From Lingula anatina (taxonomy: Eukaryota; Animalia; Brachiopoda): a stretch of DNA of 64,000 nucleotides. The stretch is taken from assembly GCA_051362555.1 (NCBI GenBank), contig CM120647.1, positions 5,084,001-5,148,000 of the forward strand, given 5' to 3'. The notes beneath the pieces are model-generated. The model did not search any database, was not told the DNA's origin, and saw nothing but the letters and a program-made list of their open reading frames with translations. Positions within the stretch are counted from its first letter, which is position 1, and each line of letters opens with the position of its first letter. The translations under genes and the position numbers were made by a program. Shown here piece by piece: positions 3,522-37,199 of the stretch.

Positions 3522-5171
3522 TAAGCGCCATTATGTTTTTGCGCATCTAATCTGCAAGGTGCCAATTAGTCCATAAGCTGAGCCTTAACATATACTTCCT
3601 TAATCAAAACCGATCAAGAAATTTAACCCATGAAATTGGAAATGGTTTTAAACAGCTGCTTCCCATTCTGTTGATAAAGTTGACCACTTGACACTATTTT
3701 TTGAATAAAGAATATTCGGAGTAATAGACGCCAACATCAATTGTTGCCTTTTGGGAGGGGGGGGGTGTGAAGATTGATAATGTTTTCTGGTGTTGTTTTG
3801 GTGACAAAAGATAACATAGAAGGTCGTGCTTTTTTAATGAACTCCAAAATGGATATTGATAGAGTAATACTACTATTATTACTTATAATAATAATAAATA
3901 CATTATTTTATTAAAGTCTCATGTAAAAAAAATAAAATAAAATAAAACCCACCCTACCAAGGGTTATGAGAGCCTAGAACCTGTGATACTACATTTAAAA
4001 TTCATATATTTTTAAATTATAACTTATCAATTAAACACATAAAAAGGACATCATATATAAAACTTTTCAAACACTCTCTTTGTCATTAGCTTTGCCTTTT
4101 TTCCACAACATTGTGTGTACTTTTCTCGCTGTATAGAATTGTATTTGGTTGTTTCGCATAATAAATATAAGCATTTCAGCATTAAAAGCATTAAAATGTC
4201 CATCTTGAATTAGGAAAAACACACTCATTTACAAACCACTTCAACAATAACAAAGCCCCGGATGAAACACGTGTAGGTTGAAAAAGGAGCTGGTATTATA
4301 CAAACTCAGATACTTTCTTTGGATGTTTTATATGTTTTGACAACGGTTGTTTTAAGGATGTATGTCCAGGAAAGTTCCTATCTACATCACGGTATTTACA
4401 TGGCACTGTATATAGATAACTTTAGCTATCATGTTTTTTATTATTTTTATTTTTATGTATTTTATTATATTCTTTTACAATACCCGTTCAAATTTGAAAA
4501 TAAGTCACCATTGGTCGATTTTTTATTATTTATTTTGAAGAACGAATCTAACTGTAAATCCAGATTTATGAATTACTACCACTGTTCTATTTTGTGTTGC
4601 AGAATTGATTTCATCTACGATGTGGTCACTGCAATTCTACGTCATCACACTGTTTCTGTTCGACAGTCCAGTAACCGGTATGTATACCCATGATTCATGG
4701 CAAACAAAGGAAAATAACTTTGATATACCGAAGGTTATCTATGCCTCCTCCGTGACAATTTACCAAAAGTGTTTACTTCACCAACCACAAAAATTAATTT
4801 AAAAAATATGTTGAGGAATTATTGTTTGAGAATTGGCCAATTAATCCTGCTTTTTACACCACCAGTGAATAACATAGGGAAATCATTTGCATAGGTCTAC
4901 TTTTATTTACGTATTATATATATATATATATAAGTCTAGTTCCAGACTTATGCAGACACTACCCGTAAAAGCAGTGTTAGGTAGACCATCGTGTATACAT
5001 TTCTAATTGAAAAAATAACTTTATTTTAACATTTAATGAATATTATGTACATGCTATGATTATAGAGGCACAGAAATAAACAACAAAAAATATAAAAAAA
5101 AAAAAATTGGTCTGCCTAAGTTTCTGTAAGGATAGAACCAGCATTAGGCAGGCAAGCATTAGGCAGACCAG

Positions 5172-5240
<69 letters not shown>

Positions 5241-5344
5241 CAGCAGTAAGTAGACCACATGTACTTGTATAAATATATCAAAGTCCAGCATTAGGCAGAC
5301 TATATTAAAGTATACATTTGTTTGCTATTAATTATTGTATAATG

Positions 5345-6122
5345 TACCCTAGGTTCTGATTCCGGTATTGCCAGCTCGATCTTGATTTCCTATATAGCCC
5401 ATGTCGCAATACCAGGTTCTAGTGCACAGCGGCCATGTTAGGCTCCCGTCAATCAAATAGAATGGCTCCGCAGTGAATCTGCAGTTGAATGTCATCAGAC
5501 CAAAATGAAACGTAAAACAGATTTAATTCTGCTTTAATTAATTTTATTTGCTGTATTTAAGATATATAAAGTGAGAAATAAATAATATGTTTCTAAAAGA
5601 AAAAAGGTATATCCAATGTTTTTGTATTTTTTGCTTATCAAAGAACATTTAGTCCTGAGATAATAGACACGTGCTTGCCGTGTGCCAAGTTTGACAGCTA
5701 CACTGGATGCCCGATACCACTATAAGGGCTGCGCAATGGCTACACCAAAATCAATTTTATAGCAGAATGTTGCTTTTATTGTGGCACTGACCTTCGGCTG
5801 CAAGATAATTTCAATTCAAACTTCTAAATCCGCGTCAGACACTATGATTCTTGTCTCGTCTGCACGAGATTATGTCAACGCAAGGCGGGAAAAGCAGCTC
5901 CAGGCGGCCAAACCTGTGACGTACGAGACTTATGACTTCCAAATATGGATCCAGGCGGACACAGCTGTGACGTGTGACTTCCAAATATGCAAGCGCCCCA
6001 GGCAAATTTTTGAAGAAGTACGCCCTCAGATTGTCGCTGTTCGTCAGAGCTAGTGAAAGTGACTCCAAGGTATATTAGATATTAAACAAACTAACTTTCA
6101 CGTTGCTCTGACACTCAGGGCA
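5345..6122. mobile_element. 778-bp non-autonomous insertion with a 9(-10)-bp TSD
   Basis: TGTATAATG is duplicated at 5336-5344 and 6123-6131. The site is empty in copy B (about 23737). The ends TACCCTAGG / CTCAGGGCA form weak TIRs. Confidence 0.8.
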
Positions 6123-8998
6123 TGTATAATGTTGCCACTCACAGCAACCAACAGTTTAGCAGAGTAATTATTCTTGTTCATGCAATCTTGCTATTATGTG
6201 CGATTTGGGAGACAATATGTTGTATACATTTGTGCTTTTATAATTAATGGGATTGTTTTAAAGAGCAATGTCTTCACAGCCAAAAAGCCAGGATAATTTT
6301 AGCAAATCAACATTAAGTTTTGAGCACAAACCACAATTTATTTGGCATACATGTAACTAAACAGCAATAAGCAGACCATTTAGACTATATATATATATAT
6401 ATATATATATAAAACCAGCATTAGGCAGACTTTATATCAAACTACATTTTTACTTACTTTTACACTATGTTGCAACACAGAGTGCTTACCACTCAGAACA
6501 ATCAACACTTTAAATTGGCATATTTTAATTATTCATGTTATCTATTTTTGTCATTTGTGGGACAGTATGTTGTATATTTTTACTTTTACAATTTATGAGT
6601 ATAATTTATGAGTGCTGTAACATACCATTCCTTTTCAACCAAAGAGCAAGGATAATTTCAGCAAAATAAAATTTTGACCTAATCCCACACTTTATTTTAA
6701 TGTCACCCGTTATTGGATTTGTTTGTGTGACATGAAAAACAACTAACATAAACAATATGTAAGGTCTTAACATATTTATTGAGGTCAAATCATTGAACAG
6801 TCTGGATGAATAACATGCACCAATCTACATAAGCATAGAACAAAAAAAAAAAAACAGACAATGGACACAATTTAGGTGTTACTTGTCTGCCACCAAGCAC
6901 ATTACATCATTGAACAATCTTCAAGAAATGGAACTTCACTGTTACTTCAACAGTTAAATGTGTGAAATATTACTTCCAATATTTTGGAGAGCAATCTTTG
7001 TAAAAAACTTAGTCAACTGTAAAACGAACTTAAAATGGAACACACTGTTTCTCCAAGCAACAGTTAGGTATGTGAAATATTATCTTCAATCTTTTGGAGA
7101 ACAATCTTTGAGAAGAATTTCATCAACTGAAATATTAGAGGTAATATTTATATACTTTGCTGTTGTTTGAAGAAACATTGGTGTTCCATTTCAAGAACAG
7201 TCATCCTCCAACAGTTGCATTATATTCTTTGAAGTTTTTTTATTAACATTTTCCCTCATTGTTTTTCTCTCATTGAATAGCTTTATCCTGGTCTTTTTGT
7301 AGGCCTCTTGTAACTCCAAACTCTTGAGGCAGTGTGGATGTGGCCCTCAAGAAATGTCATTATTTCTTTTTTACCTTCAAAGTAAATAAAAAATATATTA
7401 ATATCATTAGCAAAGCCTCCATGAATCACAAAATTCAGTTTTGTTAGGCTGAATGATGTCATTGGTTGACCTCCTTACGTCCCCGTTACAGTTTTGGAAA
7501 ATAAGATGTTAGAAAAGTTATGTGCAATTTACTATTTTTAGTTTGTGGGCCTGGATTTTAAAAGTAAGTTATTTCCACTTAGATACAGATATTCATTTTC
7601 CTTAAGTACACAATGTTTTTTGTCCATCTGATATTGTTTACACGACTTCTGCCAAAAGCAATACAAATTTTCACAAAAATTGCATTTTCGTGGCAACATA
7701 GTTTTAATTTTCTCCTCCAGTTTAAAGAAAAAAAAAAAAAAAGAGTCATCTTTTCAATAATTATTAAAAAATGCCATTGGATATTTGTACATGAAACTCT
7801 ACAGATATACAGTTTGGACAAAAATTTGATGATGCCTGTAGTTCTAAATGTACACAACTACAGCGTAACAATGTAATGTACTAATTGGCTATTCAATAAA
7901 ATTGCACGTATGATTTCAAACGAAAAAAGTTGGCTGCACTCTGTTACAAGTTCACCTTGAACCATATTATATCTCAGAGGTACTATGCATGAAAATGACA
8001 ATATCGAGTCAATAAAATATGCTTACTTGGAAGCCTTCCTTTGTTATCCTCAGCCTCTAGGTGAGTACTTAAATATGGCGAAAAATGGTCTCTCAACATA
8101 TTTGTGTCTTCAGCAGACCAGGCCACTGAAAGAATAAAAGCACATACATCTATAACATATTTGAATCCTCTATTTCAAAGTGATAGATACAATTTCCTTC
8201 TCCGATGACATTAGTTTTGCCTATAGGACTTTAGAATCTTATAAAAAGAAATAGCAGTTCTGAATTTATATAGCTTACATTTCATTTTATCAAATAAAAG
8301 ATAGCAACTTTTCTTATATGTTATTACCTGATACAGATGTCTTGTCCTCTACAATCAATGTAACAGGATTATATGTCAGATTTGATTCTGAAAAGAAAAT
8401 ATATGTACACACCTTTTATTGATTGAAGCTCTATGCAATGCAAATAAACCATATAATAACATTTATTTTATTGGGAGGTGGACCATGCACATGCTGTTAT
8501 GTCCTAAATATTATACTTTATTTTTTGATTTTATATAAACAATTTCTGCAAAACAATGTTAAAAACATAAAAGGGAATATATACTTTATTCAATTGATCA
8601 TTTTCCCAAATTCAGCGTAGTTGTAAAACTGTCACTGTGTTTTAACCACTTAAAAATGTTTTGCAAATAATATGATTATTTGGTAAAGGTATGCATGTTA
8701 TTACCTGACTGAAGTTCTTCATTTTTACCAATCTCTTTAGTTTCAGTTGCACTTGCCTCAACTGTTTGTATAGTAGTTAAATCCGTTTCTGGTTCTGGTA
8801 CTGAAAACAAAAACAAATCAATGTTTACTCATTTTAGTGACTGCATCTTGTCTTTTACAGATCATGGATATCTAATGCATAGAAATATCTGTTTGGATTA
8901 AATGATATGTTTTCATATACAAAAAAATAGTTAAAATAGTCATGAAGAAATTAAGCATATTTTAAGTAAACATGTAATTATGAAATGAACACAATTAC

Positions 8999-10560
8999 CA
9001 TTTTCAAGATCTCCCAACATGCGGCCCATTACTTTGACCTCCCTGAGTCCAATTGGACATTGGTAATTATCTCTGTTGATGTTTTTTTCATGACCCATAT
9101 AATCTAAAAAGACCTGCTGATCTGTTGGGCTCATGTCCAGACTTGCATATACAGTTGACAAATAATGTCTGTTCTTTGTGGCATTGACTGTGACACCTTC
9201 TGCAGAGCAAATATCATTAAATGCGTGCCAACCAGAAGCATGTGCATTTGGGGACTTGGTTGCAAATAAGTAGGGATTTTCTTCAGGAACCCCAAACTCC
9301 TTTCTGTGTTTAACCAAATGATTACCACGTCCTTAGGCACTAGGACAGGGACAAACTTCTTTCCCTTCCCATTTAAGTAAGCTAGAAGGTGTTTTCCAAA
9401 GAGAAATTGTTCTGCAGGATCTCTTTTTTCCACCTCTGTATCTGGTAGCCACACCCCTTTCTGGGCGTCTTCCCACTGAGATATTGTCAACCTGGATGGC
9501 TCCTCTCCTCTGCGCCCATTGAATAAGGTTAATCAGCAGACAACTAAAGATCGCAACCAAGCATATCTGCCTAATTCAAAGTTGTCTGGCTCAGCAATTT
9601 CTTTTGTTATAAAGTTCTTCAATTTGGTAATGTCTTCAGGCACAACTTGCTTTTCAGGATGCCTTGCTTTGGTAAATGAGTTAGACAATGCCTTGTATCG
9701 AGAGCTAGAATACATTTCGTGAGACCTAAATAAATAAGCCTGCTGAAATTTGCCAAGTTCTTCATACTTCAAGTCTTGCATTATTTCTGTGTAAAGTCCT
9801 TTTAAAAATTTTATGCATCTTTGTAGAATTGCATGGCCGTTTAGTTTCAATCCATGTTTTTCATCACCGTTATCCATGCTAACCAATTTTTTATGGCCTC
9901 CCTCAGTGTTGTTAAGTGCTTTCTTGTGAACATGTCTTCAGTGGTTACATTCTCCTCACACAAATCTCTGAATATGAGGAAGACCCTTGCTAGCTCACGC
10001 ATTTCCCCCATGACAGACTTTCTTGTTTCGTTTCTTTTGCATCTTGTCCTCGCGACGCATTGAATAATGGCGATATCCAACTTGCATAATCAAGTCATCT
10101 GTGGTGCACAACTGTCCAACCTCACTGTCTCTGAATTTCCGCAATATATTCATACAGAAATCTTTGTCTTTATGAACATCAATGGTTTTTAAGTGTGTAG
10201 CCTTAAGAGGTTCAGGATAAGTCCCAGTACAACCTGCACGGTGTTTGTAGTAAGATCTATTGCTAAAAAACCTTCTACAACCTGAACACATAGTAACTTC
10301 ATCTGGTCTTGTAGCAATGCGTTCTCTCATCATCACATTTGAATCAAGTTCAGCACCTGTAGATTTTGCTATGATGTTCAAATTGTATTTATACATCCCA
10401 TCACACCTCTTCTGGTTGAAAAACTTATCCTGAAGATGTACAGGAAGTTTAATGGCTTCTTTGACTTCAACTATATCCCGCTGTTTTCTTCGAATATGGC
10501 GTTTTAATTTGCCACCATTAATCAGTATGTCACAGTAAGGGCAATACCTTACAGGTCTCT
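8999..10560 (-). pseudogene. Large exon encoding zinc-finger motifs plus a tyrosine recombinase domain (frameshifted)
   Basis: Joining frames gives YCPYC...KLKRHI and MCSGC...YKHRAGC, then LTLFNGRRGEEPSR (catalytic R), GKGKKFVPVL, NPYLFA, ATKNRH, YMGH and NRDNY (catalytic Y). The exon is flanked by an AG acceptor and a GT donor and has several frameshifts and stops. Confidence 0.8.
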
Positions 10561-10709
10561 ACTGAAATTTAAAAAAAAAATGTATCTATCACAATTTAAC
10601 ATCGAAACATTAAAAAAAAAAATCAATCTTGATTACATACACATACCTCAAAAAGAAGGTGAAAATACTCAAGACAACAAAGTTTGGCAGTAATACATAT
10701 AGCTTTCAA

Positions 10710-11800
10710 CATACCTTACTGGAGACCCCAACGCCAGAATTGGAAGTTAACTGCTCTGTTTCTTCTTCAACTGTATGCTTCTCTGGCGGTGTATTTTCTT
10801 GAATTTCACTCCCTTAAAAAAGAGATGGGGTATAAGACACCCGTATAAGCAGTATATATCTAAGACATAATTATGGCAAGTATATGACACTTAAATTTAC
10901 ATTTTGTTGACATTTGGTTATTTCCACATGCATACACGTACTACAGGTAAGCACAGAGAGAAAACATATAACATTTGACATTTGAATAAGTAATTTATCC
11001 TTGCTAAGGTTGTCAATTTAATGGAAAATATAAACAGGAAGGGGAGAAAAGAGTGATACCTGGTGTCTCCAAACCATTTATGTTTTCACTCTCCATTTCT
11101 TCCAAAGCCTGGATGGGAACCTCATGCTATAACAAAAAGATGGAAAGTGGATATTTTAGCCAGGTCTCGACATGTTTTCAACGTGTTTCATGCAGCCATA
11201 CCCTTTTTTTATCATGTCTTCATTGAGGAACTGTCAATCCAGATGGCTCAAGATTAATCTGCTGACAACTAATGATCACAAACAAACTTAGTCAAAGAAA
11301 AAATGCTAACAGTATATAAACATTATTGTATATACAGAATATATAAATACTAATATTAACATTATGAATTCAAACACCTTTGGAAAAAAATAAAAATTAA
11401 TAAATGAAAAAATTAACATACCTTTCTGGAGACTCCACAACAATGACTAGAAGTTATTTGCTCTACTTCTTCAACAACAGGCTCTTTTGGCCGAGTTCTT
11501 TCTTGTAAGTCATTCCTTTAAAGGGGGAGGGGTTATTGAACATTTTGAACATATTGAGTATTTATGGCACAAGGCAAATCAGGCCACATTATGAGGATCA
11601 TCACTTAAATACCTTGCATAGAAGTAGAAAGATAATACTTCACGTTTGATATTTGAATTAGTTACTTATCCCATGGTTGTGAATTAACTGCAGAATTTAA
11701 AGAGTAAGGGAATTAAAAAGATGTACCTGGTTTCTTGACACCATACATTTCCAATCACAGTTTCTTCCAAAGCCTGGAGCTTGTGCTATAACAGATAAAG
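10710..11800 (-). repeat. Diverged tandem duplication of an exon-plus-intron unit (about 700 bp period) in the linker region of the YR gene
   Basis: There are similar small exons at about 10714-10813 and 11421-11516. The intron words TTTCTTCCAAAGCCTGGA (about 11096 and 11761) and ATTTGAAT(A/T)AGT(AAT/TAC)TTATCC (about 10980 and 11651) are shared. Confidence 0.5.
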
Positions 11801-12253
11801 TAACAGAGTTCCAGTATCTATGCAAGTTACTTCAAAGAGGGTTATCAAACAGTAGACTCAACAAATCATTCTTGACTAAGTGATAAATTTTCACCAGCAT
11901 GTATGACTATTTGTTTTTTTTTTTTTTTTTTTTTTTTTGAGGAGGAAGGGGAATGGAATTATATCTGTACCGGTATGTACATACATCTTGCCATCTAAAA
12001 GCAAATATTTCCACTTATAACAAATACCTTATTGCCAAATCTAATAACATCTTCTGGTGAAAGCTCTGCAGAATCTTGAAGGTCACTCTCTGTAAAAGTA
12101 GCCAAAGACTGAACCTCACACACAATTGCAGGCACATAGGACTCTTTTCCTCAGATACAAGAATAAATATGTATATTTCAGTTTAGATTAGTGAGTTACA
12201 AAGCATTTATATTAATAATGTTGTGAAATGTAGAAGTTAATTATAAGATATGC

Positions 12254-12322
<69 letters not shown>

Positions 12323-12326
<4 letters not shown>

Positions 12327-14017
12327 CTTGACATTTAATATGGAATATTTTTTTCTAAATCATTATTCATTAGTTTTTTTCTTATTTCGCAGACTGATAA
12401 ATAAAAATAAGGATTAAAATCGTGTTTTAATAACTTTTGATAAAATGTTCCATGTCATTGCAACATCAGTTCTTTAATTGACTTCGCCAGTGAAGCAAAC
12501 AAAAATGCATTGCCAACAACCATTGAAAGCGATATTTTGGATCTCCATATCTTCCAAATTATTAGAACAACTAACTACTGAACTACCTCGCTAACGAGCA
12601 AACTTAGCGATTTTCGAGGGGTGTTTCACGAAGCAGTAGTTAATTTATCGCTAATTTCAGTCGTAAAGTTCGGTCGCTAGTTCTCTCGTTACTCACCGTA
12701 GTCTCGAAACCGTCTGCCGGAAGTGGAACTCTTGCGTAAAAGTGTCACGAAAGCACTAACTCTCCAATTTTTGGTGGCTGGAAATGCATAAGAACGTCTG
12801 CTTTGAGGTCGTCGTAAAGGATCTCCACCACCTTTTTGCCGCTCTTTTTGTCACAGCTAGGCGCAACCTCTCGTAAATTGCATCATCGTGTGTATATTCT
12901 AATAGATTCTGCCTTTCATGAAAACGTCGTAGTCTACGTTGCCGTCTGGCGGTGCGGTTAGCAAGAAAGGTAGCCGCCATATTGGATACAAAGACAAACG
13001 ACAGACAACGGTAACTAAGCAACCTTTTTATTTCACTCATTACGCATGCGTACGATGAAACTCTAGAGTTAGCGACTGGTCTGACCAGTCGTTAAATATC
13101 CAAGGCAACAACGAGACAATAACGAGCGAGAGAACTAGCGACTGCTTCGTGAAACGGCACTCTAACTAGCGAGAGGCTAACTATCGATCGCTAACTAACT
13201 ATTGCTTTGTGAAACCGGCCCCTGGTGAAATCTGACCTCAATAAAGAAAACAACGCGATTTCAGTATTCTACCCAGAAACGGTCATGGTCCCCAATTCAT
13301 TAGAGAAACAGACTACACTGTTTTGCTGTTTACAGTGGCTTCCTCAGAGGTCGCCTAATATCCTAACCTGCTGAAACCATTTTGGTCTTCGCTTAGCGCC
13401 TTGAAAAACGCGTTTTGGTGACAATTTGCCCCTCATTTAAAACGTACTAGGTGGTTTTGGTTTAATTGTAGGAGCATTTCCTGAAGGACATTGAGTCCTG
13501 TATCCTGGTGGTAAGATATCGATACATTGGACGTGCTGTCTGTGTGGGTACATAACCCTGGGCATTACTCTATGAAACTGTGCGGACAGTTCCGTTTGGG
13601 GCAATAATCTGTCTGGCAATATCTGTCTTTTTCGCGCCATTCTGGCACAGCTTAACGATTTTGATAAACAATGCTTAACTCATTTTACACAATGCAAAAC
13701 CGACCGCTTGCATGCAAAATTTCAAATTCTTCTATGCAATGGTGGCCGACATATGGATACATTTTTGACAGAACCGTGCCTCGCCAAAGCCAAGCTTTGG
13801 CCAGCCCAAAGGAGCACTACTCAATTAAATCACTGCATATTACACAATGCAGCAATGCATCAGACTTGGTAATCAGTTAATTGGTAGAGACACACCTGTC
13901 TTCACACTTCTCCAGTCAGATATCTTAAATGAGATCTGAGTTTTTTTCAATTAAGAACGCATTTTACCTAGGTTATACCTTTAAAACTGCAATATTCCAT
14001 ATTAAATGTCAAGTCTG
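12323..14017 (-). mobile_element. Tc1/mariner-like degenerate element inserted in (TA)n
   Basis: Perfect TIR CAGACTTGACATTTAATATGGAATATT at both ends, flanked by TA. A related copy lies at 51637-52519. Confidence 0.8.
12618..13222 (-). mobile_element. PIF/Harbinger deletion derivative nested in the Tc1-like element
   Basis: TIRs GGGGTGTTTCACGAAGCAGTAGTTA / TAACTATTGCTTTGTGAAACCGGCCCC. It retains a HARBI1-like N-terminus (MAATFLANR...RRFHERQNLLEYTHDDAIYERLRL). Confidence 0.7.
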
Positions 14018-14874
14018 TATATATATATATGAGTAAATAATTTGAATTTGAAAACATAATTTGAACTGTGCAATATTCCACAGAAAAAAAATATAGCAAT
14101 TTTGAATTGGATATTGCACCAGTAATAAGCAGACCTTACATTAAAACAGCATTCAGAAAAACACTATTGTATATTTGTATTCTCCAGCACAGGTTTACAA
14201 GAACTGGCTCTGAGCAGTTATATCCAGTAGTAATTTGACTATGTTAAAAAAAATTAAAAATGGAAATAACCAAGTGTCAATTTAACTTTCTTTTTATTTA
14301 ACAATATAACTCACCCTGGGGTTCCCATTCGATGCCACTAGAGACAAGTTCATCACTAGTAATTAACTCAGCACCCTTGTCCAATGAAGGTCTGTAATTG
14401 GAAGTAGAGCACATTCTAATAGATTGTTTCATGCACATGGAAAGTAATCAAAATAGTAATTTATACCTAAATGTTACGCACGCAGCGGTGCGTACCTGTA
14501 AGTTTGTATCACATGCTTTTGCTTTACTAGTTGTCCAATGATCATGTGATGGAGAGCATGGGATCTCCATTGGCCAGTCTATTGAGAACTATTCACTCCA
14601 CTTTACTACTTATACTGTATGCAGCGTATTTCTTTGGACAGTCTTTCTTAGTTGTGCAAGGGCGTATCGGGCATACATTCTTGAATTTGTGTATAGCAGG
14701 GGGTGTGTTAATATTGAGTAAGTTACATATTTTTTTCTTTATAATGTACAACTTAAGTTACTTAATTATTTATGTAATCATTTCTTTATAAGTGTAAATT
14801 TATTAATGTATCTTTATATTAAAGTGGCTTATATTGTTGTTTTCTTTTTTTAGGCCACCACACATACTAATAAT

Positions 14875-16473: not shown

Positions 16474-16593
16474 AATAAATACAATATTGCAAACGGTTAT
16501 GTTTGTCGGTTTATTGTAAAATGTGCGTGTGCCAATGACCAGAAAATTTCAACCCCGACAGCTGTGCGCAACAGTGGCTCAATAACCTGTGAA

Positions 16594-16790: not shown

Positions 16791-16843
16791 GTCGATGACA
16801 GAGGAGTGACAGATCCTCATTTACTACATTTCAATCGTTTAGT

Positions 16844-23539: not shown

Positions 23540-23632
<93 letters not shown>

Positions 23633-26222
23633 ATATTTTACCAGCAGTAAGTAGACCACATGTACTTGTATAAGTATATCAAAGTCCAGCATTATGCAGA
23701 CTATAATAAAGTATACATTTGTTTGCTATTAATTATTGTATAATGTTGCCACTCACAGGAACCAACAGTTTAGCAGAGTAATTATTCTTGTTCATGCAAT
23801 CTTGCTATTCTGTGTAATTTGGGAGACAATACGTTGTATACATTTGTGCTTTTATAATTAATGGGATTGTTTTAAAAAGCAATGTCTTCACAGCCAAAAA
23901 GCCAGGATAATGTTAGCAAATCAACATTAAGTTTTGAGCTCAAACCACAATTTATTTGGCATACATGTAACTAATCAGCAATAAGCAGACCATTTACACT
24001 TTATATATATATATATATATATGAAACCAGCATTAGGCAGACTTTACATCAAACTACATTTTTACTTATTTTTGCACTATGTTGCAACACAGAGTGCTTA
24101 CCACTCAGAACAATCAACACTTTGGCACATTTTAATTATTCATGTTATCTATTTTTTGTCATTTGTGGGACAGTATGTTGTATATTTTTACTTTTACAAT
24201 TTATGAGTATAATTTATGAGTGCTGTAACATACCATTCCTTTTCAACCAAAGAGCAAGGACAATTTCAGCAAAATAAAATTTTGACCTAATCCCACACTT
24301 TATTTTAATGCTACCCGTTATTGGATTTGTTTGTGTGACATGAAAAACAACTAACATAAACAATATGTAAGGTCTTAACATATTTATTGAGGTCACATCA
24401 TTGAACAGTCTAGATGAATAACATGCACCAATCTACATAATCATAGAACAAAAAAACAGACAATGGACACAATTTAAGTGTAACTTGTCTGCCACCAAGC
24501 ACATTACATCATTGAACAATCTTCAAGAAATGGAACTTCACTGTTACTTCAAACAGTTAAATGTGTGAAATATTACTTCCAATATTTTGGAGAGCAATCT
24601 TTGTGAAAAACTTAGTCAACTGTAAAGTGAACTTGAAATGGAACACACTGTTTCTCCAAGCAACAGTTAGTTATGTGAAATATTATCTTCAATCTTTTGG
24701 AGAACAATCTTTGAGAAGAATTTCATCAACTGAAATATTAGAGGTAATATTTATATACTTTGCTGTTGTTTGAAGAAACATTGGTGTTCCATTTCAAGAA
24801 CAGTCATCCTCCAACAGTTGCATTATATTCTTTGAAGTTTTTTATTAACATTTTCCCTCAGTGTTTTTCTCTCATTGAATATCTTTATCCTGGTCTTTTT
24901 GTAGGCCTCTTGTAACTCCAAACTCTTGAGGCAGTGTGGCATGTGGCCCTCAAGAAACGTCATTATTTCTTTTTTACCTTCAAAGTAAATAAAAAATATA
25001 TTAATATCATTAGCAAAGCCTCCATGAATCACAAAATTCAGTTTTGTTAGGCTGAATGATGTCATTGGTTGACCTCCTTACGTCCCCGTTACAGTTTTGG
25101 AAAATAAGATGTTAGAAAAATTATGTGCAATTTACTATTTTAAGTTAGTGGGCCTGGATTTTAAAAGTAAGTTATTTCCACTTAGATACAGATATTCATT
25201 TTCCTTAAGTGCACAATGTTTTTTGTCCATCTGATATTGTTTACACGACTTCTGCCAAAAGCAATACAAATTTTCACAAAAATTGCATTTTCGTGGCAAC
25301 ATAGTTTTAATTTTCTCCTCCAGTTTAAAGAAAAAAAAAAGAGTCATCTTTTCAATAATTATTAAAAAATGCCATTGGATATTTGTACATGAAACTCTAC
25401 AGATATACAGTTTGGACAAAAATTTGATGATGCCTGTGGTTCTAAATGTACACAACTACAATGTAACAATGTAATGTACTAATTGGCTATTCAATAAAAC
25501 TGCACGTCTGATTTCAAACGAAAAAAGTTGGCTGCACTCTGTTACAAGTTCACCTTGAACCATATTATATCTAAGAGGTACTATGCATGAAAATGACAAT
25601 ATCGAGTCAATAAAATATGCTTACTTGAAAGCCTTCCTTTGTTATCCTCAGCCTCTAGGTGAGTACTTAAATATGGCGAAAAATGGTCTCTCAATATATT
25701 TGTGTCTTTAGCAGACCAGGCCACTGAAAGAATAAAATCACATATATCTATAACATATTTGAATCCTCTATTTCAAAGTGATGGACATAATTTCCTTCTC
25801 CGATGACATTAGTTTTGCCTATAGGACTTTAGAAGCTTATAAAAAGAAATAGCTATTCTGAATTTATATATCTTACATTTCATTTTATCAAATAAAAGAT
25901 AGCAATTGTTTACTTTTCTTATATGTTATTACCTGATACAGATGTCTTGCCCTCTACAATCAATGTAACAGGATTACATGTTAGATTTGATTCTGAAAAG
26001 AAAATATATGTACACATCTTTTATTGATTGAAGCTCTCTGCAAAGCAAATAAACCACATAATAACATTAATTTTATTGGGAGGTGGACCATGCACATGCT
26101 GTTATGTCTGAAATATTATACTTTATTTTTTGATTTAATATAAGCAATTTCTGCAAAACAATGTTAAAAACATAAAAGGGAATATATACTTTATTCAATT
26201 GAACATTTTCAGTCATTACAGG

Positions 26223-26274
<52 letters not shown>

Positions 26275-27122
26275 GCCACACAAGTTATTTTTTTACATTA
26301 ACTTGTGTGGTGACTTTGAGCTATGTGTCCGCTGCTCAAATAAATTAGTTTGACAATTCATTAAATAATTTTAAGATGATTTTTTGTGAAACTTTTAAGT
26401 CTTCCACATAAAATGAGGACCGGGATTATTAATATCTTATACTACGTTTTTTTCACAGATGTCGATCATTAACACGCAGTAAATCTCCTCACAACATTCT
26501 CTTATTATAAAGATACGATGAAAACGTGAACTTACCAACTGTTTTCCTCTCAGAAGTGACATCTTGTGCGGCAGTCACGTACCGGTAGCCATGCCATCAA
26601 ATGCATTGCGCGCCAGAGACCTATATCATAAAGGTCAAGGACATTGCTGACTTTCTCTCCCAGAAGGAGAAAAAAGGTGGCATGTCAAATATCGGTCTTG
26701 TAAAAAATCTGCGTTGTAAGAAACTTATTGTGCGAATGGATAGCTATGTGGCTAAATAACACAGATGCCAAGAGATAATTTCGATATATAGCGTATCTTG
26801 AAATTATCGTCGATTTTCCAACGGTCTGCCGTAGCGTGTCTCATAAGTTTTTGATATACATCGTAAATATACACGGTTGTACCTGTAAAAACGCATTTGA
26901 TTTATTTTAAATGGCCTTCGCAAACAATATATAATCGATGTAAACAATAACATCGGTGTACCCTTAAGTAACTGACAGCAGATTACTTTTTCAATCTGCT
27001 TTTATCTACATTTTTTTAGGGGGGGAAATGTTAGGCAGACCGGCTGCGGTCTGCCTAAAATTCCGGTCTGCGTAATGCTGGCGTTTAAGTGCGAATGGTC
27101 TACCTATTGCTGGAAGCAGGAC
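23285..27122 (-). mobile_element. Non-autonomous derivative of the YR-SET element (copy B), nested in an internal (TA)n of copy A
   Basis: 23285-26205 matches 4934-8600 without the MITE. It then jumps to AGTCATTACAGGC(TA)n (equal to copy A 23204) and ends with CTGGAAGCAGGAC|TATA. Confidence 0.88.
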
Positions 27123-27583
27123 TATATATATATATGTAATAGTAGTACTTATTTTCTTAATTTTTTATTTATTTTGTCATATTTTCAGTCTGTTCCGTTT
27201 GTATGTTTCCATTCCTTATTTTCTGTATTCCCTGATTTCTTTCTTATTCCTTGTTTTCTGTCTCTGTACGTTCTTGCTTTTCATTGGTTTAAAGTCTCTA
27301 ACCGGTAATTTCCTTTGTCCGATTCCTCACTTTCTCTTAGATCTCGTAGGCTGAAGTTTTCTTTTATTTTACAGGTAATTTTTTTTTTTTTTTTATCTTT
27401 AATTTATATTAAGCCATATATTATTTGATTAACTCTCATTATTTAGTTATTATTATCAATTTAATGCTTAATTTAAATATTTATTTAGCAAACTATGTAA
27501 TTTATGTAAAAATAAAGACTTTCTCTTAGATCTCGTAGGCTGAAGTTGTCTTTTATTTTACAGTAATAAAAACTGTTACAATT

Positions 27584-27601
27584 TGGCGCCCGAACAGGGA
27601 C
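27584..27601 (+). other. Primer binding site complementary to tRNA-Lys(UUU)
   Basis: TGGCGCCCGAACAGGGAC begins 3 nt after the 5' LTR and is the known tRNA-Lys3 PBS sequence. Confidence 0.9.
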
Positions 27602-27889
27602 CTACGAGAGTAAAAGAGAAGTCACGTAACACGTATCTGCAGTTGGTCGATCCCACACACTGAGCTAACGGTAGCCCGAATGGTGATTCCTTGGTGTTAA
27701 AAAACTGGTTGAGTCGACGTTTCATCTGGGGACGCCTAGTACGACCGCCGACAAAGCCTGTTGTGAAGAAAACAAAGACGTTTTCTAACGGACATTTTCC
27801 TGATCTCCGTCTTGGTGTATGTGTTTGCTGTGAAATCCGTCATTTCTGGTGTATACACCTCGTACTTTGAAGCTGCCGGCTGTGACACC

Positions 27890-28120
27890 CAGGAGCTGAA
27901 GCTAACTACGATCCACTGCTTGAAATCGTCAATGATGATCGGTTATTTATAAGACAGTAGGACCATTGTGAGGAAGCTGAGGCTACCTGCGAGACACTGC
28001 TTGAACCCGTCAATGACGACCGGTTATTCATAGGACAGTTTTAGAGGAGCTGAAGCTTACTACGAGACACTTCTTGAAGCTGTCAGTGACGATCGTTATC
28101 TATAGGACAATTGGACAATT
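27890..28120 (+). repeat. Three diverged units of about 70-80 bp in the Gypsy leader
   Basis: GCTGA(A/G)GCT...CG A.ACACTGCTTGAA...GTCA(A/G)TGA(T/C)GA..G occurs three times. Confidence 0.6.
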
Positions 28121-28966
28121 GTAAAGGTACTTGTAAATATTGCATTCCTAACGGTACCTTTGTAAATAATTTTGATTCATTTCACGCTCTGAGTTACTAT
28201 CGTTTCAACTCTTGTAAATATTACATCCCTACTAGTACATTTGTAAATAGTTTTGATTAATTCACACTCTGAATTTCCGCCGTTTCCACAGTTGAACTGT
28301 AGCATTCATACTACCCGTTTGTGGGTGTTGTTCAGTCAACCGCAGTGCACATTTGGGCGTTGTTCAGTCAACCGTAGTATAAATTTGGGTGTTGTTATAA
28401 ATAGCAATACGCAGCGGACTCAGTCAAGAGTATATAATTATTGTCATTTCACTTACTAGATTGAGTAGTGTACAGTTTTCACTTGATAGAATGAGTAGTG
28501 CACAGTTCAGTATTACCTGTTGTCAGACTAGCTCATATTAAGTGAAGGTAGTTTGTGTATTTTTTCATTCCTCTTTGAATTTTATACCTTTTTTTTTCAA
28601 TTTTCTTAGATGGCTGTTTTCAGTATAAATAAAATTTAACAGCCAAATTCCATTGATTGGTTTGAACTGTGAAAGTATATGCTGCTTGTTTGCATACATT
28701 GATTGTAGGATTATTTGTGACTGTAATTTATGTTGTGCACGCATCACTGCTCTGATCAGTAGTTAAATGAAGTAGTACAGTGGTACTCTGAATGTGTTAG
28801 AGCATCCTAACGCAATTTGTGTGTGAAGTTTTCTTTGATTTAATTGAAAAAAATATATATATATATAATTTTTTTTTTCATTTCAACATGTATTATTTGT
28901 GCAATTTCAGCCCTGAGATTCTTAACTTTTTCTCTACCTTGTGCATTTCAGACTTCTATCTCAAAC

Positions 28967-30368
28967 ATGGCTCTTTTCAGTGATCGGTCTGTTTGTTTTC
29001 ATAATTTGCCTGATTCTTATGATCCAGATTCACTACAGCAATACATTGAAAAACGATTGGTGATAGGCAGGGTAGAAAAATTATACACACTGGAAGGGAA
29101 TAGGGCGTTTGTTGTTTTTGAGTTACCTGAAACAGTGGTTGAAGCTATTGATTCAATTCATAATCACCAGTTTGGTGGTTACAGGTTAAGAGTCTTACCG
29201 GTTCAGGAACCGGAGATCCTTGAATTAGAGGGGATATCTAACTGTCTTGAGGTTCTAGGGGTAAAAAAAACCAAAACCTACTCCAAGAAAAAATACAATT
29301 ACTGAAGCGGCTGGTGATACTTCTGACATCTCAGCTAAAACACCTGCACAATACATGGAGGATATGTTGAGTATAATGTCCCTTGATAACAAGCGTTAGA
29401 TGTTTCAGATTTTAAAAAATGAATTTCAGGAAACTCATTCAACTAAAAGACCTGTCCATCGCCTTTTTGAGTCTGATACTCCAGCTTATTCACCAACAGT
29501 ATTATCTGATCCCAGACAAACGGTCTCAGCTCCTAGTCCAGCAGTGGCCTCTGCTCCTATTCAGAATGTGTCAAGTACACCTGGTGGCACTACTTTTTCT
29601 ACTACTTCTGGTGTTCCACCCAAAATTTCTTATTTCTCAGGTGATGATGGAAAGGGTGAGTCATCATATCAATAGTGGCGATACGAAGTCATGAGTCTGG
29701 TTAAAGAGGGTGTCTATCCTTCTGCAATGATCTTTTTAGCTATACGCAGATCCCTAAAAGGAACTGCTGCTGATATATTGCTCAACATGGATATGTCGCT
29801 CGACGAAGAGATGACAATTGACCTCTTAATTGAGAAGTTGGATATGGTCTTCGGAAAAATTTTGCCAATAGAAGCTGCTTTGCAGAAATTCTACAATGCC
29901 AACCAGGTGAGTTCTGAGACTGTCGCGAAATGGGCTTGTAGGTTGGAGGATTTACTTGGGGAAGTACGCAGGGCAGATCCTATTACTTCTGAGGAGGTAA
30001 GGAGGAAGTTGCGCAATAAATTCTATAGTGGGTTGTCCTCAACAAACATCAAATTTAGCATAAAACACAAATATGATTCTGGTGCAAGTTAACATGAACT
30101 ACTCAGGGCAGCCAGGATAGCAGAGCAAGAACAGGTAAGTTCTGCTAGTGTTCAACAAAACACGGTTACAAGTGACATGACTTCAAAATTGAATGATCTT
30201 GTTTTTCAGTTGGAGACTCTAAAAAACAGATTGGATAAATTGGATAGAGATAAGGCATCTGCACGTAGACAGTTCACAGGTAGGTGTTTTGCTTGTAAAA
30301 AAATAGGACACAAACAAACCGAGTGTCCGGAAAACTCAAGACAGTATACAAACGGGGGCAGGTTGTAG
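28967..30368 (+). pseudogene. Gypsy Gag: N-terminal RRM-like domain, PNMA-like capsid region and CCHC knuckle (disrupted)
   Basis: SVCFHNLP...RAFVVFE (RNP2/RNP1-like), PKISYFSG...WRYEV...IRRSLKGTAAD and CFACKKIGHKQTEC. Several stops and frameshifts. Confidence 0.8.
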
Positions 30369-33300
30369 ATTGTGTTAATGCCATGCTTCACAAACCTGAG
30401 ACTGAAAACAAGATATACCAACCTGAGGTTGCCAATAAACCTATACTTCAGCGATTGGTTGGTAAAGCTAATGAGACATCTGTTAGTGCCAATAACAAAT
30501 CTGTTTTGGCCTTACTTGATACAGGTTCCATGGTCAGTACTATTTTTAAGCAATTGTGTGATGACCTCAAGCTAGACGTGCTTGAATTAGATCATATTAT
30601 TCAGGTGGAAGCAGCTGGTGGAACTACTTTGCAGTATCTTGGCTATACAGAAGTGAATCTTTCAGTTCCCGGATTACAGGAACCGCCCATTCCTGTGTTG
30701 ATGTTAGTGGTACCCACCATCAAATATCACATAAAAGTTCCATTACTCATAGGCACCAACGTTTTGAAAGTTATTTTAGAAGGCAAGACAGTTCCAAGGG
30801 ACGTAGACGTGGTGTGGCAAAATGTGTTTAAAGCCATTGTCTCTTTAAATACTCTCTTTCAGAAATAAGGGTCATTGGGAGTTGTCACTTCCACAAAGAA
30901 CATTACCGTAAAACCTTCTTGTCATACGGTAATTCATGGACAAACTAGAGCAGCATTCTCTTGTATGCATATCCGGGTATTAGCTGATGAGAGCAGCTCT
31001 TCACATTTACCTGGTACATTAGTTATCTCCCCAGGTCTGATTGAGTTAAAACCTGGAGTCAAATCTCAGCGTGTTCCTATAGAGGTTACCAACTACTCAG
31101 ACAAACCAGTTACAATCCCAGCCAAATTTGCCTTGTCTGAACTGTATCCTGTGGATATCCTTTCTCCAGAGAGTCTCAATCATTGTTCTTCTGAGAGAGA
31201 CCTTGAAATTCCAAAGCTATTTCAAACTGACCTTTCAGAAACTCTAAAACCCAGTGAAGTGGAAAAGTCACTTGCATGTTAAAAAAATGGCAGTTTGTGT
31301 TTAGCAAAAATGACTTAGATTTAGGTCACACTAACATCACAAAGCATCACATAAATCTTACGGATAACCTGCCTTTTACCGAAAGACACAGTCGAATACC
31401 TCCATCCATGATAAATGAAGTAAGAGAACATTTGCAGGACATGCTGAAACTGGGGGTAATTAGAAGGTCTGAAAGTCCATATTCATCAGGTGTGGTGCTA
31501 GTAAGAAAAAAAGATGGAGCTCTACGGTTTTGTATTGACCTGAGAAAACTCAATTCAAAAAACATCAAAGATTCTTATGCTTTGCCTCGAATTGATGAGA
31601 CTTTGGACATTCTTCATGGTGCTTCTTGGTTCAGTGTGTTAGATTTAAAATCTGCTTACTGGCAAGTTGAAATAGAGGAATCAGATATTCCCAAGACGGC
31701 TTTTTCTGTTGGGAATCTTGGTTTATTTGAGTGTAAACGCATGTCATATGGGTGCACCAATGCTCCAGCTACTTTCCAACGGTTAATGGAAACGTGTATG
31801 GGAGATTTGTATTTGACAGATTGTCTCATTTACCTAGATGACATAATTGTCTTCAGCAATTTGATAGAGGAACATTTGAAAAAACTTGAAAAAATATTCC
31901 AAAGGTTGCATGAGGCAGGTTTAAAATTCAAACCAAAAAAAAAATGCAAATTATTTCAGAAATCCATTAAATATCTGGGACATGTGGTGTCAGAAAAGGG
32001 GGTGGAAACTGACCCAGAAAAAATTGAGGTTATCAAGAATTGGCCAATTCCCAAAAACTCAAAGAGGTTCAGAGTTTCTTGGGTTTTGTGGGTTTCTATA
32101 GAAGGTTCATCAAGGACTTCTCAAAAATAGCTAAACCCCTTCATAATCTAACCAAAGGCAATGTGAATGTGAAAAAGGGAATACGTCACAGTCAGTCTTC
32201 TTCTTCATCTGCTTCCTTCACATGGGGCGAGGAAGAACATTCTGCTTTTTCCCGTCTTATAGAATGCATTATATCTTCCCCCACCTTAGCTTTTGCTGAT
32301 TTTTCAAAACCTTTCATTTTACACACTGTTGCTAGTGCAATTGGACTAGGTGCCGTTTTATATCAAGTCCAAGATGGCGTCAGAAAACCTATTGCCTTTG
32401 CTAGCAGATTACTAAATGGAGCTGAATCTCGCTATTCGGCACACAAACTCGAATTTCTGGCTCTCAAGTGGTCTATCAAGTGGTCTATTTCATGATTACC
32501 TCTATGGGAACGAGTTCACTGTCTATACAGACAATAACCCTCTCACTTACCTCTTGACAAGTGCAAAATTAGACGCAACGGGGCATCGTTGGGTTTCTCA
32601 GTTGTCCAATTACAATTTTTCTATCATGTATAGATCTGGCAAATCTAATGTTGATGCTGATTCTCTTTCTAGGATCGAGTGGCCTGAAGCTAGCAAAGAA
32701 ATCATGTCTCAAAGTGTTCATGCCATTTTTCAGATGGGTCTTGTGGAAGATACGTCCTTGATAGATGCGCATAGTGTTTCAGGTGAACAAAATTCTGAGC
32801 AAATGCAGGATTGGAGTGTGATTCAAGGTGAGGATCCTGTATTGAAACACATAGTAGCAGCAGTGCAGGGAAAACCAGTAGATTATGCCAAACTTGGATT
32901 TGAAGGGAATGTTTTCAAACGTGAATTCCCCAAACTTGTTCTTAGAGAAAATGTCCTTTACAGAACAAGAAAGATTGATGATGATGTAAATTTCCAGTTG
33001 GTTCTTCCACAAAGCTACAGGTCCAAGGCAATCACTGGTTGTCATGAAAGCATGGGACATCCGGGTCGTGAGCGCACTCTGGATTTGATGAGGGTTAGAT
33101 TTTATTGGCCTGGTATGACTCGTGACGTCATACAGCATGTGTCACAATGTGGGCGGTGTGTTGTACGTAAGTCCCCTACCAAACAAGACACTTACCTCAC
33201 TTCTATATCTTCATCTTATCCATTGCAGTTGGTCTGCATTGATTACTTGTCTATTAAGGATTGCAAAGGTGGTGTGGGCAATGTTCTTGTCATTACCGAT

Positions 33301-34110
33301 CATTTTACCCGATATGCTCTCGCTATACCAACAAAAAATCAGACCGCCAAGACTACAGCTGAAGCTTTGTACAATAATTTCATTATGGTTTTCGAGAGAG
33401 ACTTCAGAGCGACCAAGGTCGAAACTTTGAGTCAGACACAATACAAGAATTGTGTAAATTAGGTGGAATAGTGAAGTCGCGAACAACTCCGTATCACCCT
33501 ATGGGGAAGGTTGAAAGGTTTAACAGATCTTTATTGGGTATGTTAGGTACTCTTGACCCCGATGAAAAGAAAGACTGGAAAAATATGTTCCGTCCTTGGT
33601 ACACGCTTACAACTGCACAAAGAACAAAACTACTGGCTTCTCACCATTTATTCTGATGTTTGGCCGTCATCCAAGATTAGCCATTTCAGAACCCTAAAGA
33701 TCCCGTCCTATCGTCCTCCTATCCGGAATATGTGTGTCAACTTAAAGAGAAGTTGACGTATGCTTATGAACTGGCTTCTCAGAAAATCAACAAATCTCAA
33801 ACCAGACAGAAAGAAACTTACGATCAGAAGGTGAATTATGTTGGCATTACAGTTGGTGACCGTGTATTGGTGAGGAATGTAGGTCTGAAAGGAAAAAAAA
33901 ATTAGCTGACAAGTGGAAACCGGAGGTATTCTTGGTAACAAATCAACCCAATACTGACATACCAGTCTTTGTGGTTAAGCCGGAGACTGGCAAAGGCTCA
34001 GAAAAAACTTTACATCGGAACATACTCCTTCCTTTAACATCCTTACCCGTTTTCCCCGTCAATAGATCAATACCATCAAAAAGAAAACATAAAAAAAAAC
34101 TCAAGTAATC
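30369..34110 (+). pseudogene. Gypsy Pol (protease, RT, RNase H, integrase), frameshifted
   Basis: LLDTGS; LRFCIDLRKLN, LDLKSAYWQ and YLDD; GLGAVLYQ and YTDNNPL; the integrase zinc finger H-x3-GH...CGRC; TDHFTRY; and TTPYHP...VERFNR. Confidence 0.92.
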
Positions 34111-34747
34111 CTTCACCTGTCCCGTCTTCTTCTTCTTCATCAGACTCAGACAGTGACAACTCTACCTATCGGGGCCCTTTGACTAGATCCCGTACAAACC
34201 CAATACCAAAACCCAGAAAATCTCTAAGAAATGGAAAAAAAATAAAACGAATTGAGTCAGTAATTTTAAAGCTGTAGGACCAGCTTTCATGTAAGGGGGG
34301 GGGGGATGTAATAGTAGTACTTATTTTCTTAATTTTTTATTTATTTTGTCATATTTTCAGTCTGTTCCGTTTGTATGTTTCCATTCCTTATTTTCTGTAT
34401 TCCTTGATTTCTTTCTTATTCCTTGTTTTCTGTCTCTATACGTTCTTGCTTTTCATTGGTTTAAAGTCTCTAACCGGTAATTTCCTTTGTCCGATTCCTC
34501 ACTTTCTCTTAGATCTCGTAGGCTGAAGTTGTCTTTTGTTTTACAGGTAAAATTATTTTCTTTTTATCTTTAATTTATATTAAGCCATGTATTATTTGAT
34601 TAACTCTCATTATTAAGTTATTATTATCAATTTAATGCTTAATTTAAATATTTATTTAGCAAACTATGTAATTTATGTAAAAATAAAGACTTTCTCTTAG
34701 ATCTCGAAGGCTGAAGTTGTCTTTTATTTTACAGTAATAAAAACTGT

Positions 34748-34811
<64 letters not shown>

Positions 34812-37199
34812 CTTCATTTCTATCTATCATATATAAGCAAAACGTTCAAGGAGAAACAGACTGAGACAGCATGCTTTACCCTGTACATCCCTGCATACTT
34901 CATGCAGTTCAACAGGAACACTATTTCACTATATTATTGAAAAATATAAATAATCACTTTGACTTTAATATGATATCTATATTTTTAAAACTATACAATA
35001 ATCTTCCATAATAAAAAGTCATTAAGACACAATTGATAAATATCACATTATTAATTAATGCTCACCTGCACCCTGCGCATACCAAGTCTTAACTGAAAGG
35101 AAATTCAATACTGTATGTAAGAATCATCTTAGTCCAGTATTCTGGGCAAACAGAGACCCCCCTCCCAACCTACGCTACAATCTCACATGGGGAATTTCGG
35201 CACTTTTGCAGTTTACCCCACCACTCTATAACTCTGTGATATTAATTAAATTGTTTACATTAACTTGTGTGGTGACTTTGAGCTATGTGTCCGCTGCTCA
35301 AATAAATTAGTTTGACAATTCATTAAATAATTTTAAGATGATTTTGCGTGAAACTATTAATTCTTCCACATAAAATGAGGACCGGCATTATCACTGGGCT
35401 GAAAATTTGCCGCGATCTCATTGGTCAATTAATTTTCAGGGTTAGTAAAAAAAGTATAAAAATAAGTTAGCAAATTTACAAACTAATTTTTTTTTTGGAA
35501 TAGCTGAGACATTGATAAAAGTCACCACATAACTTAGTTTTGATAATATCGGAAATTAGAGAGTTGCGGGTGGAGGTGGATAAGTACCGAAATTTCTGAG
35601 TCAGTTGAAACAGGTTATATAGAAGATAATTTATCATTATGCATAGGCTATTGGCTTAAAAGAGAAATATTAAAGAAGGAATAAATTAAAGTTATAACTA
35701 TTATCCTGAAACAAACTGTGTTAGAGACTAGATCAGTGCTGGATGAAGATCAGAAATCTAATACACATGATAAATTAGCAGGTGGGAGTATACTAGTATT
35801 TTGAGAACCTAATACAGAGGATGCTGAAGTAGAAGTTCCAATGGACAGTATATATGCTTATTGGCTTTAAATACATCATATTTTGCTTCATTCTGTACAC
35901 TGTATCCAGTAGGTCTTTTTACCGAATTAAAATTGGTTGAAACAATTAGTGGCAATTCTGAAGTGTTGGAAATTCTGGGCACTCTCAAAACAAAGTATCA
36001 AAATTTGTTTAAGGATAATAAATAAATAATAAAAATGTATATAAAGCTGACAAACCCCACAATATTCTGTTTAACTGAGCCACAAAATAAGCTGAAGATC
36101 TGTAAATTTGCATAAATTGCATGACCAAATTAAAAAAAAAAGAAAAAAAAAAGTGACCTATATCATAAAGGTCAAGGTCATTGCTGGCTTTCTCTCTCAG
36201 AAGGAGAAAAAGGTGGCATGTCAAATATCGATCCTGTAAAAAATCCGCATTGTAAGAAACTGATTGTGCGAATGGATAGCTATGTGGCTAAATAACACAG
36301 ATGCCAAGAGATAATTTCGATATATAGCGTATCTTGAAAATTATCGTCGATTTTCCAACGGTCTGCCGTAGCGTGTCTCATAAGTTTTTGGTATACATCG
36401 TAAATATACACGGTTGTAAAAACGCATTTGATTTATTTTTAAATGGCCTTCGCAAACAATATATAATCGATGTAAACGATAAAATCGGTGTACCCTTAAG
36501 TGACTGACAGCAGATTACTTTTTCAATCTGCTTTTATCTACATTTTTGTAGAGGGGGGAATGTTAGGCAGACCGGCTGCGGTCTGCCTAAAATTCTGGTC
36601 TGCGTAATGCTGGCGTTTAAGTGCGAATGGTCTACCTATTGCTGGAAGCAGGACTATATGTATTCAACAAGCCAAAAGAATCATGCTTCGAGACTGCCGA
36701 TTCTCTGATGTTAGAGAAACTACATATTGGGCTCTCTGGTGACAGATATCCACATTTGTACATTAAATTTGATTTTATAACATGCTGTCAATCAGTTTTA
36801 CGGTCTGTGTGCATTGTTTAATTTAAAAAAATCAGAGCGTCATCCATGATTTTCCATCTCCATTACAAAATCAGCAACCGAAAAGTGAAAAGCTTGCCAA
36901 TAGATTATACAAATCTGTAATAAAGGGGTTGATAATTATCGCCTGGAAAATATTAACAGTCCCTGTATACAGTATGACCCATCTCAACGTGAAGATTAGT
37001 TTGATATAACAACTTGCCAGTATGAAACAAGAAACCGCAAAAATGAAAATACATGGTTGTGCACTATGTGTTTGGAATTCTTTTTTTATAGTTATGCTGT
37101 AAAACTACGTGATTTTAATTTACTCAACATTATCTAAAGATACGTAACACTTTTAAATAATTCTTCTACCAGAGGGGTTTTTCAATAAAAGAGAGCTTT

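Follow-up and report, generated by a model that had tools for sequence, protein, structure and literature searches.

Among the transposons closest to the element reported here are those of the CryptonV lineage, the source for which is said to be Kapitonov and Jurka (2012, Repbase Reports 12:2034). In the portion of PMC8869645 available to us, CryptonV is described as a tyrosine recombinase (YR) DNA transposon lineage of cnidarians that inserts into microsatellites. CryptonA/F/S/I are likewise eukaryotic YR DNA transposons free of reverse transcriptase (RT), for which a circle-excision model has been put forward (Kojima and Jurka 2011, PMC3212892); in the sections of that paper at hand they have terminal direct repeats of 4-6 bp and lack terminal inverted repeats, CryptonA has a DUF3504 domain, CryptonF a GCR1_C domain, and the term 'SET domain' does not occur. 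Starships, too, are eukaryotic YR DNA transposons with a target preference, but are fungal, giant and cargo-bearing according to the excerpts consulted (PMC10104507, PMC9156397, PMC11162782). Here we describe a YR transposon of the brachiopod Lingula anatina, whose one gene joins a histone methyltransferase-like SET domain to the recombinase (hereafter the SET-YR element). Its outer copy lies on the minus strand at 4934..36654 of a 64,000-nucleotide stretch of contig CM120647.1, the whole of which is referred to as the window.

A SET domain fused to a transposase is known from SETMAR/Metnase, a single domesticated primate gene that is not mobile and that joins a Suv39-type SET to a DDE mariner domain. 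The literature searched held no still-mobile element with a histone methyltransferase inside its own transposase and no description of a SET-bearing Crypton, the Repbase reports being outside the reach of that search; a SET domain may already be noted in Repbase CryptonV entries. The reading that we favor, with a probability of roughly 0.7, is that the window holds a decayed (TA)n YR transposon with one spliced gene for a SET-linker-zinc finger-YR-tail protein, relatives of which would excise as circles and re-insert in TA runs, while the SET would monomethylate lysine 20 of histone H4 (H4K20) on the element's own chromatin. The architectural part, for which common ends, TA-run targets, a SET inside the ends, exon phase, fusions in several phyla and the folds of both domains argue directly, we hold with great confidence. 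That the SET is an active H4K20 monomethylase acting in cis is a tentative proposal, falling slightly short of even odds.

The window region 4934-36654 is a dead YR DNA transposon swollen by nested insertions. It is bounded by GTC at 4934 and GAC at 36654, both within TA runs, and self-comparison of the window reveals that both ends are common to three minus-strand copies (4934-36654, 23285-27122 and 57478-61000). All six copy ends start with GTC and abut TA runs, and the left and right ends form imperfect inverted repeats (in the outer copy, the 3' terminus at 4934..4960 and the 5' terminus at 36597..36654, the latter on the plus strand). The outer and inner copies are 96.6-97.3% alike. A 16-bp subterminal motif, GGTCTRCSTAATGCTG, has 26 matches at up to two mismatches, none of them farther than about 1.5 kb from one of the six ends, as against a mean of 0.03 matches expected from shuffles. 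Matches near left ends are on the minus strand and those near right ends on the plus strand; since the pattern was derived from these same ends and the copies are homologous, nine sites per element count as independent. In the outer copy, seven minus-strand motifs pointing to the near end occupy 4972..6431, a span broken by a 777-bp insertion (5346-6122, 10-bp duplication), and two copies, inverted with respect to the other end, lie in the 5' terminus.

The core measures 11,682 bp once five insertions are subtracted, namely the 777-bp one, the nested derivative, a terminal inverted repeat (TIR) element, and one element each of BEL/Pao and Gypsy type. RT and integrase open reading frames (ORFs) are found only inside the nested Gypsy and BEL/Pao elements, which have their own long terminal repeats (LTRs), and the core contains neither an RT nor a DDE gene. 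The copy at 23285..27122 is a non-autonomous deletion derivative inserted in an (AT)n of the outer copy's intron, and at its junction the 13 bases next to the intronic (AT)n, 70 bp ahead of the first SET exon, are fused directly to the intron that follows the YR exon, so that SET through YR were lost by a single deletion. Because SET and YR were removed together, the SET is internal to the element. The third copy (57478..61000), again in a (TA)n, is a deletion derivative in its own right and has the element's two ends too. The original prediction had proposed, from the sequence of the window, one mobile element bounded by GTC...GAC, about 11-12 kb long once nested insertions are removed, with no RT or DDE gene of its own and with the SET inside the same ends as the YR; the two ends, the computed core, the three copies (two of them deletion derivatives) and the derivative junction agree with it on each of these points. 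Element ends were also sought in 80 metagenome loci and none could be resolved in those contigs, which are short and crowded with other repeats.

The gene can be modelled as 20 minus-strand exons (E0-E19) with AG/GT borders, unbroken phase and about 1,070 codons, arranged as two micro-exons followed by three exons for the SET, ten for the acidic linker, one of 1,563 nt for the zinc fingers and YR, and four for the tail. The encoded order is thus SET, acidic linker, two zinc fingers, YR and helical tail. E1 (LRLGMRRVQ) is at 35066..35092, the KMT5A-like SET exons E2-E4 are at 23041-23134, 22761-22938 and 22414-22609, the ten short exons of the acidic, internally repeated linker (E5-E14) span 10715..21788, E15 with its two Cys/His zinc-finger motifs and the YR core/catalytic domain lies at 8999..10561, and E16-E19, a spacer followed by the C-terminal helical domain, at 7200..8800. 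The micro-exon, the three SET exons and the YR exon listed in the original prediction are all present on the expected strand and in continuous phase, though its gene structure was incomplete, as E0 precedes E1 and four exons follow the YR exon. E0 (MSLLRGKQL; 26536..26562 and near 60429-60455) is seen only in the two derivatives and is likely the first coding exon, such that the gene would start one exon earlier than E1; E0 and E1 joined resemble, as judged by eye, the bivalve N-terminal start MAALSYGKRMLK. In the outer copy, E0 is absent, and the 186 bp that hold it in the derivatives are replaced by 760 bp (35392-36151) with no other match within the window. The outer copy is further disabled by an in-frame stop in the third SET exon, by two stops (one of them at the first YR codon) and three frameshifts in the YR exon, and by frameshifts in the last exon, whose reading frame is open in both derivatives. 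One linker exon pair is duplicated (E11/E12 and E13/E14, at 10715-11785), and the homologous bivalve linkers are likewise tandem acidic repeats.

The YR exon carries the predicted catalytic set in full (RRGEE, GK, TKNRH, MGH and NY), and the complete R, K, R, H, Y set is found at the profile columns of 205 of 231 YR domains in the family. The window YR fragments have no match to Pfam PF00589, and the identification as a YR is argued from these motifs, from homologues and from a predicted fold: Foldseek searches initiated with an AlphaFold (AF2) model of the homologue P0005 rank XerH, XerA, XerD and Cre first, in weak agreement with the YR fold expected at the outset. The closest named protein to the window YR is a Lingula anatina gene model with 96% identity over part of the YR. 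The C-terminal tail may be Myb/SANT-like, given one cluster of the ESM Atlas with PF00249 in 40% of its members. In two DNA sequencing runs, contigs over the YR region split into many variants, as expected of a repeat family, and other copies appear without the outer copy's lesions at 10561, 9321, 7337 and 7235. Some of these contigs are only about 87% alike within the stretch 9536-9862 of the YR exon, a sign that the species has a second subfamily, and a variant with a deletion of 9197-11749 also exists.

The family extends well beyond Lingula, and a YR profile retrieves 1,566 clusters at 50% identity with E-values up to 1e-30. SET and YR share one record in bivalves (Mercenaria P0032; Magallana P0033-35 and P0037-39), in echinoderms (S. 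purpuratus P0127, Anneissia P0148, Apostichopus P0160 and P0222) and in an isopod (Armadillidium P0224, P0262 and P0263), with degenerate single records in three fish, and the expectation that the two domains are fused in one polypeptide is supported. The Armadillidium SET-YR proteins are 99.4-100% alike under four accessions, and these near-identical full-length copies are candidates for a live element; NCBI marks the records as unverified, and a second assembly has a shorter member. Two ENA/Logan contigs (P0278 and P0245) encode part of the SET together with the YR in what is likely a single unspliced ORF. Of 30 representatives picked for long N-termini, 8 have a Pfam SET match, and a family SET profile detects the domain in 20 of 42 long proteins, isoforms included. 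Ten ESM Atlas clusters score at least 0.9, and the five shown comprise proteins of 970-1340 aa with a SET in 79-100% of members. Two of ten family members looked up (P0223 and P0236) are from Hydra vulgaris, which indicates a cnidarian presence. Two pattern matches in viral contigs were not confirmed, and a SET match in L009 was dropped as it is weak (E-value 0.19) and downstream of the YR.

The deepest split of the YR tree has SET-bearing rows on either side, as do most sub-clades, a distribution that fits an early SET capture followed by losses but is no proof of it. SET labels show no more clustering on this tree than shuffled labels do (99 of 500 as low). Some members depart from the common architecture. 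The fish proteins P0012 (Fundulus) and P0227/P0231 (pipefish, seadragon) are recombinase-dead YR-SET-YR units, of which one is fused to a ZMYM4-like DUF3504 gene and the others are tandem with their SET tyrosines lost, and these forms are likely domestications. In the gene models of P0072 (Amphiura) and P0011 (Mercenaria) a BRCT domain stands in place of the SET, which could be a second accessory domain or the mark of a chimeric model.

The SET assignment draws on sequence and on predicted fold. SET exons 2 and 3 match Pfam PF00856 with E-values of 1.7e-4 and 3.8e-7, respectively, and SET exon 1 has no Pfam match; the best PDB sequence match of exon 3 is KMT5A/SETD8, with SETMAR/Metnase a weak one. 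For an intact clam homologue the nearest solved sequence is again KMT5A/SETD8 (E-value 3.6e-25). In the AF2 model of oyster P0033 (mean pLDDT 80.9) the SET is folded, the linker is disordered and the zinc-finger/YR block is folded, with a small helical tail, and Foldseek places SETD8 first among matches to this model (E-value 5e-10, TM-score 0.82 on the target). The proposed resemblance to PR-Set7/KMT5A is thus upheld by both sequence and fold. The intron that splits the SET just before the xIDA motif lies at about the same place in L025, L048 and the window (22609/22761). KMT5A/SETD8/PR-Set7 and the SET-YR protein have the EY.G and YDYG motifs in common, but the host enzyme is a protein of about 300-400 aa with a C-terminal SET and an NH motif, whereas the SET-YR protein, encoded by many copies, has its SET at the N-terminus, with ND in most members and a YR as fusion partner, and an orthologue of the single host gene is ruled out on these grounds.

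The SET of the window copy retains the active-site tyrosine motifs EYCG and YDYG, whose tyrosines presumably correspond to Y245, Y334 and Y336 of KMT5A. It might nonetheless be a weak or dead domain that serves as a reader of nucleosomes or of the H4 tail and tethers the recombinase to target chromatin, an alternative that we regard as unlikely. The change of the NH motif to ND in the window copy and most invertebrate members speaks for such a reader, as does the loss of the YDY tyrosines in P0160, P0012 and the pipefish copies. Set against these, most invertebrate members retain the tyrosine of EY.G and the second one of YDY, across four phyla and at SET identities of only 22-40%, two members (L025 and P0278) keep NH, and PRDM9 is active though it has no NH histidine.

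An active, self-targeted SET would fit into the life of the element as follows. Through its zinc fingers or its tail, the protein would attach to the inverted 16-bp motifs at the ends, and the YR would cut and rejoin in the TA flanks through a circle and then integrate into TA runs, by analogy with the Crypton model in the part of PMC3212892 consulted. Derivatives that keep both ends would be mobilized in trans. Held on a flexible tether at the element ends, the SET would monomethylate H4K20 on nearby nucleosomes, and this local mark may leave the element accessible and expressed in the early embryo. An active SET would give the element a direct means to counter silencing or to license itself, and would be a natural epigenetic writer targeted by sequence.

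A number of results weigh against the favored reading. The NH to ND change together with a shortened C-terminal segment could impair catalysis, and the fish members have lost SET and YR catalytic residues. The fold match of the P0005 YR is weak (best E-value 1.9e-3, TM-score 0.36 on the target), and the family YR profile has no match among PDB sequences. SET is present in only 12 of 30 non-redundant long homologues (19 near-duplicates removed), and an upstream SET in only 4 of 32 metagenome loci with at least 2 kb of upstream flank; where found, these upstream exons are on the same strand as the YR, one of them 9.8 kb away. Because P0145, without SET, and P0278, with SET, have the same YR, a missing SET is often a truncation, which explains some but perhaps not all of these cases. 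Transcription of the family in Lingula is very low in the RNA runs used: raw reads are sparse on 6430-12250 (22 records in run X14 and two in X17), and those of X14 on the YR half fall mostly over exons. Two X14 reads span one intron (roughly E16/E17). Of the shared transcript for SET and YR that had been anticipated there is no bridging read in four RNA runs, and RNA depth over the SET exons is at most 0.55. A single SET-YR transcript in Lingula is thus suggested by exon phase and by other species.

The remaining points concern a published gene set, compared here through its domain and expression tables, from the parts of the article and its tables at hand. According to Ayers et al. (2023; PMC10368294), Hydractinia has 65 KMT5A-like genes, Hydra 24 and sea urchin 61. 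Most of them combine an N-terminal SETD8-like SET with a long conserved C-terminus, they are switched on at genome activation, and the authors read the expansion as host chromatin regulators. Twelve of the 22 zygotic Hydractinia genes encode at least 1,000 aa, and the loci are dispersed. In the S8 Table, 3 of these 22 carry DNA_BRE_C, the tyrosine-recombinase superfamily, which lends substance to the suspicion in the original prediction that such proteins are misread as host 'KMT5A-like' genes; the words 'recombinase', 'integrase' and 'Crypton' have no occurrence in the main text as available. The genes with SET and DNA_BRE_C switch on at genome activation, for example HyS0030.151 (0.01 to 84.6 TPM), and a fourth of the 22, HyS0050.112, adjoins a co-activated XerA-like gene whose best Hydra match is that of two of the three DNA_BRE_C genes. 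To be counted with the adverse evidence are the six sea-urchin identifiers tried, none of which is in the S8 Table, and the gene of P0127, which is in the expression table (0 counts at 0 h and 21 at 24 h) and is not flagged as KMT5A-like. Two other LOC identifiers and one accession were not found in the table rows examined.

The same gene set bears on a different role for the SET, namely activity in trans, either on the chromatin of the embryo in bulk or on targets other than histones, such as itself or silencing factors, with possible co-option of the SET in some hosts. That Hydractinia and sea urchin co-express dozens of copies when their genomes are activated (PMC10368294) would suit such a role, and the recombinase-dead fish forms, tandem or fused to ZMYM, look domesticated. 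We nevertheless consider it improbable, to about the degree that a dead reader is, since fusion to a recombinase with likely binding motifs confined to the ends of the element would argue for local action. Finally, the chance juxtaposition of a host KMT5A-like gene and a downstream YR transposon, joined by gene predictors, could appeal to the want of a bridging RNA read in Lingula and to most long records being automatic gene models, some of them clearly chimeric (as in the C-type lectin P0203), but is very hard to maintain when a derivative holds the SET-proximal intron within the same ends, exon phase is continuous from SET to YR, four invertebrate phyla and ORFs that are likely unspliced repeat this domain order, and the five high-scoring ESM Atlas clusters shown carry the SET so regularly.

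With local action by an element-borne SET as the favored reading, a bolder and more doubtful proposal can be made, which we would sooner question than assert: that a pan-animal YR superfamily captured PR-Set7 early as an active, self-targeted writer, that the Hydractinia, Hydra and sea-urchin repertoires are these transposons, and that fish domesticated dead copies. If true, dozens of the 'KMT5A-like' genes active at cnidarian and sea-urchin genome activation would be transposon copies and not new host regulators, and censuses of SET genes in many animal genomes would change.

As for its place among described transposons, the SET-YR element has the attributes of a Crypton in the broad sense, namely a tyrosine recombinase with the R-K-H/R-H-Y set and no RT or DDE gene of its own, and the absence of RT-RNase H from the 11.7-kb core separates it from DIRS/Ngaro. 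It is probably of CryptonV type, a placement made from described traits (a microsatellite target and cnidarian relatives). Like CryptonV, it encodes a YR, has relatives in Hydra and inserts into microsatellites, with three of three window copies in TA runs, a small sample; unlike the SET-YR element, CryptonV has no SET domain in the descriptions available, and the two are compared by description only. The direct repeats of CryptonA/F/S/I differ from the SET-YR ends, which are imperfect inverted repeats with subterminal motifs, and the SET-YR gene, with about 20 exons, yields no match to PF12012 (DUF3504) or to GCR1_C on window fragments or homologous YR regions; the PF12012 match of P0012 falls on its separate ZMYM part. 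Starships are set apart by their cargo, the SET-YR element having one gene, and DUF3435 (PF11917) likewise has no match on the same fragments and regions, DUF3435 clusters being only a weak lead in the ESM Atlas (0.86-0.87, below 0.9).

Several nested insertions are not part of the element. A plus-strand Gypsy LTR retrotransposon at 27134..34751, with 447-bp LTRs that are 97.5% alike, occupies the same (AT)n as the nested derivative, so that this intronic (AT)n at 23217-34810 took two side-by-side insertions, one of Gypsy and one of the element's own derivative. The Gypsy element encodes an RRM-like domain (28844-29302) upstream of its PNMA-type gag. A plus-strand BEL/Pao LTR retrotransposon lies at 14472..20579 with a 5-bp duplication, and one of its LTRs is split by a 1.6-kb TIR element (14875-16473). 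The TA-flanked TIR element at 12323..14017 occupies another (AT)n and has a further miniature inverted-repeat transposable element inside it (about 12562-13224).

Elsewhere in the window, 46430-48035 holds a fragment with an inverted partial duplication that we take to be Penelope-like from an RT tail and a GIY-YIG-type endonuclease motif, with no such Pfam match. Two related TIR elements at 42497-44272 and 54115-55785 have long inverted arms and decayed fragments of a transposase labelled Tc1-like by eye. Likely plus-strand host-gene exons are seen at 51208-51350 and 61720-61910, the second encoding a thrombospondin type 1 repeat, and the third copy of the SET-YR element sits between these two exons.

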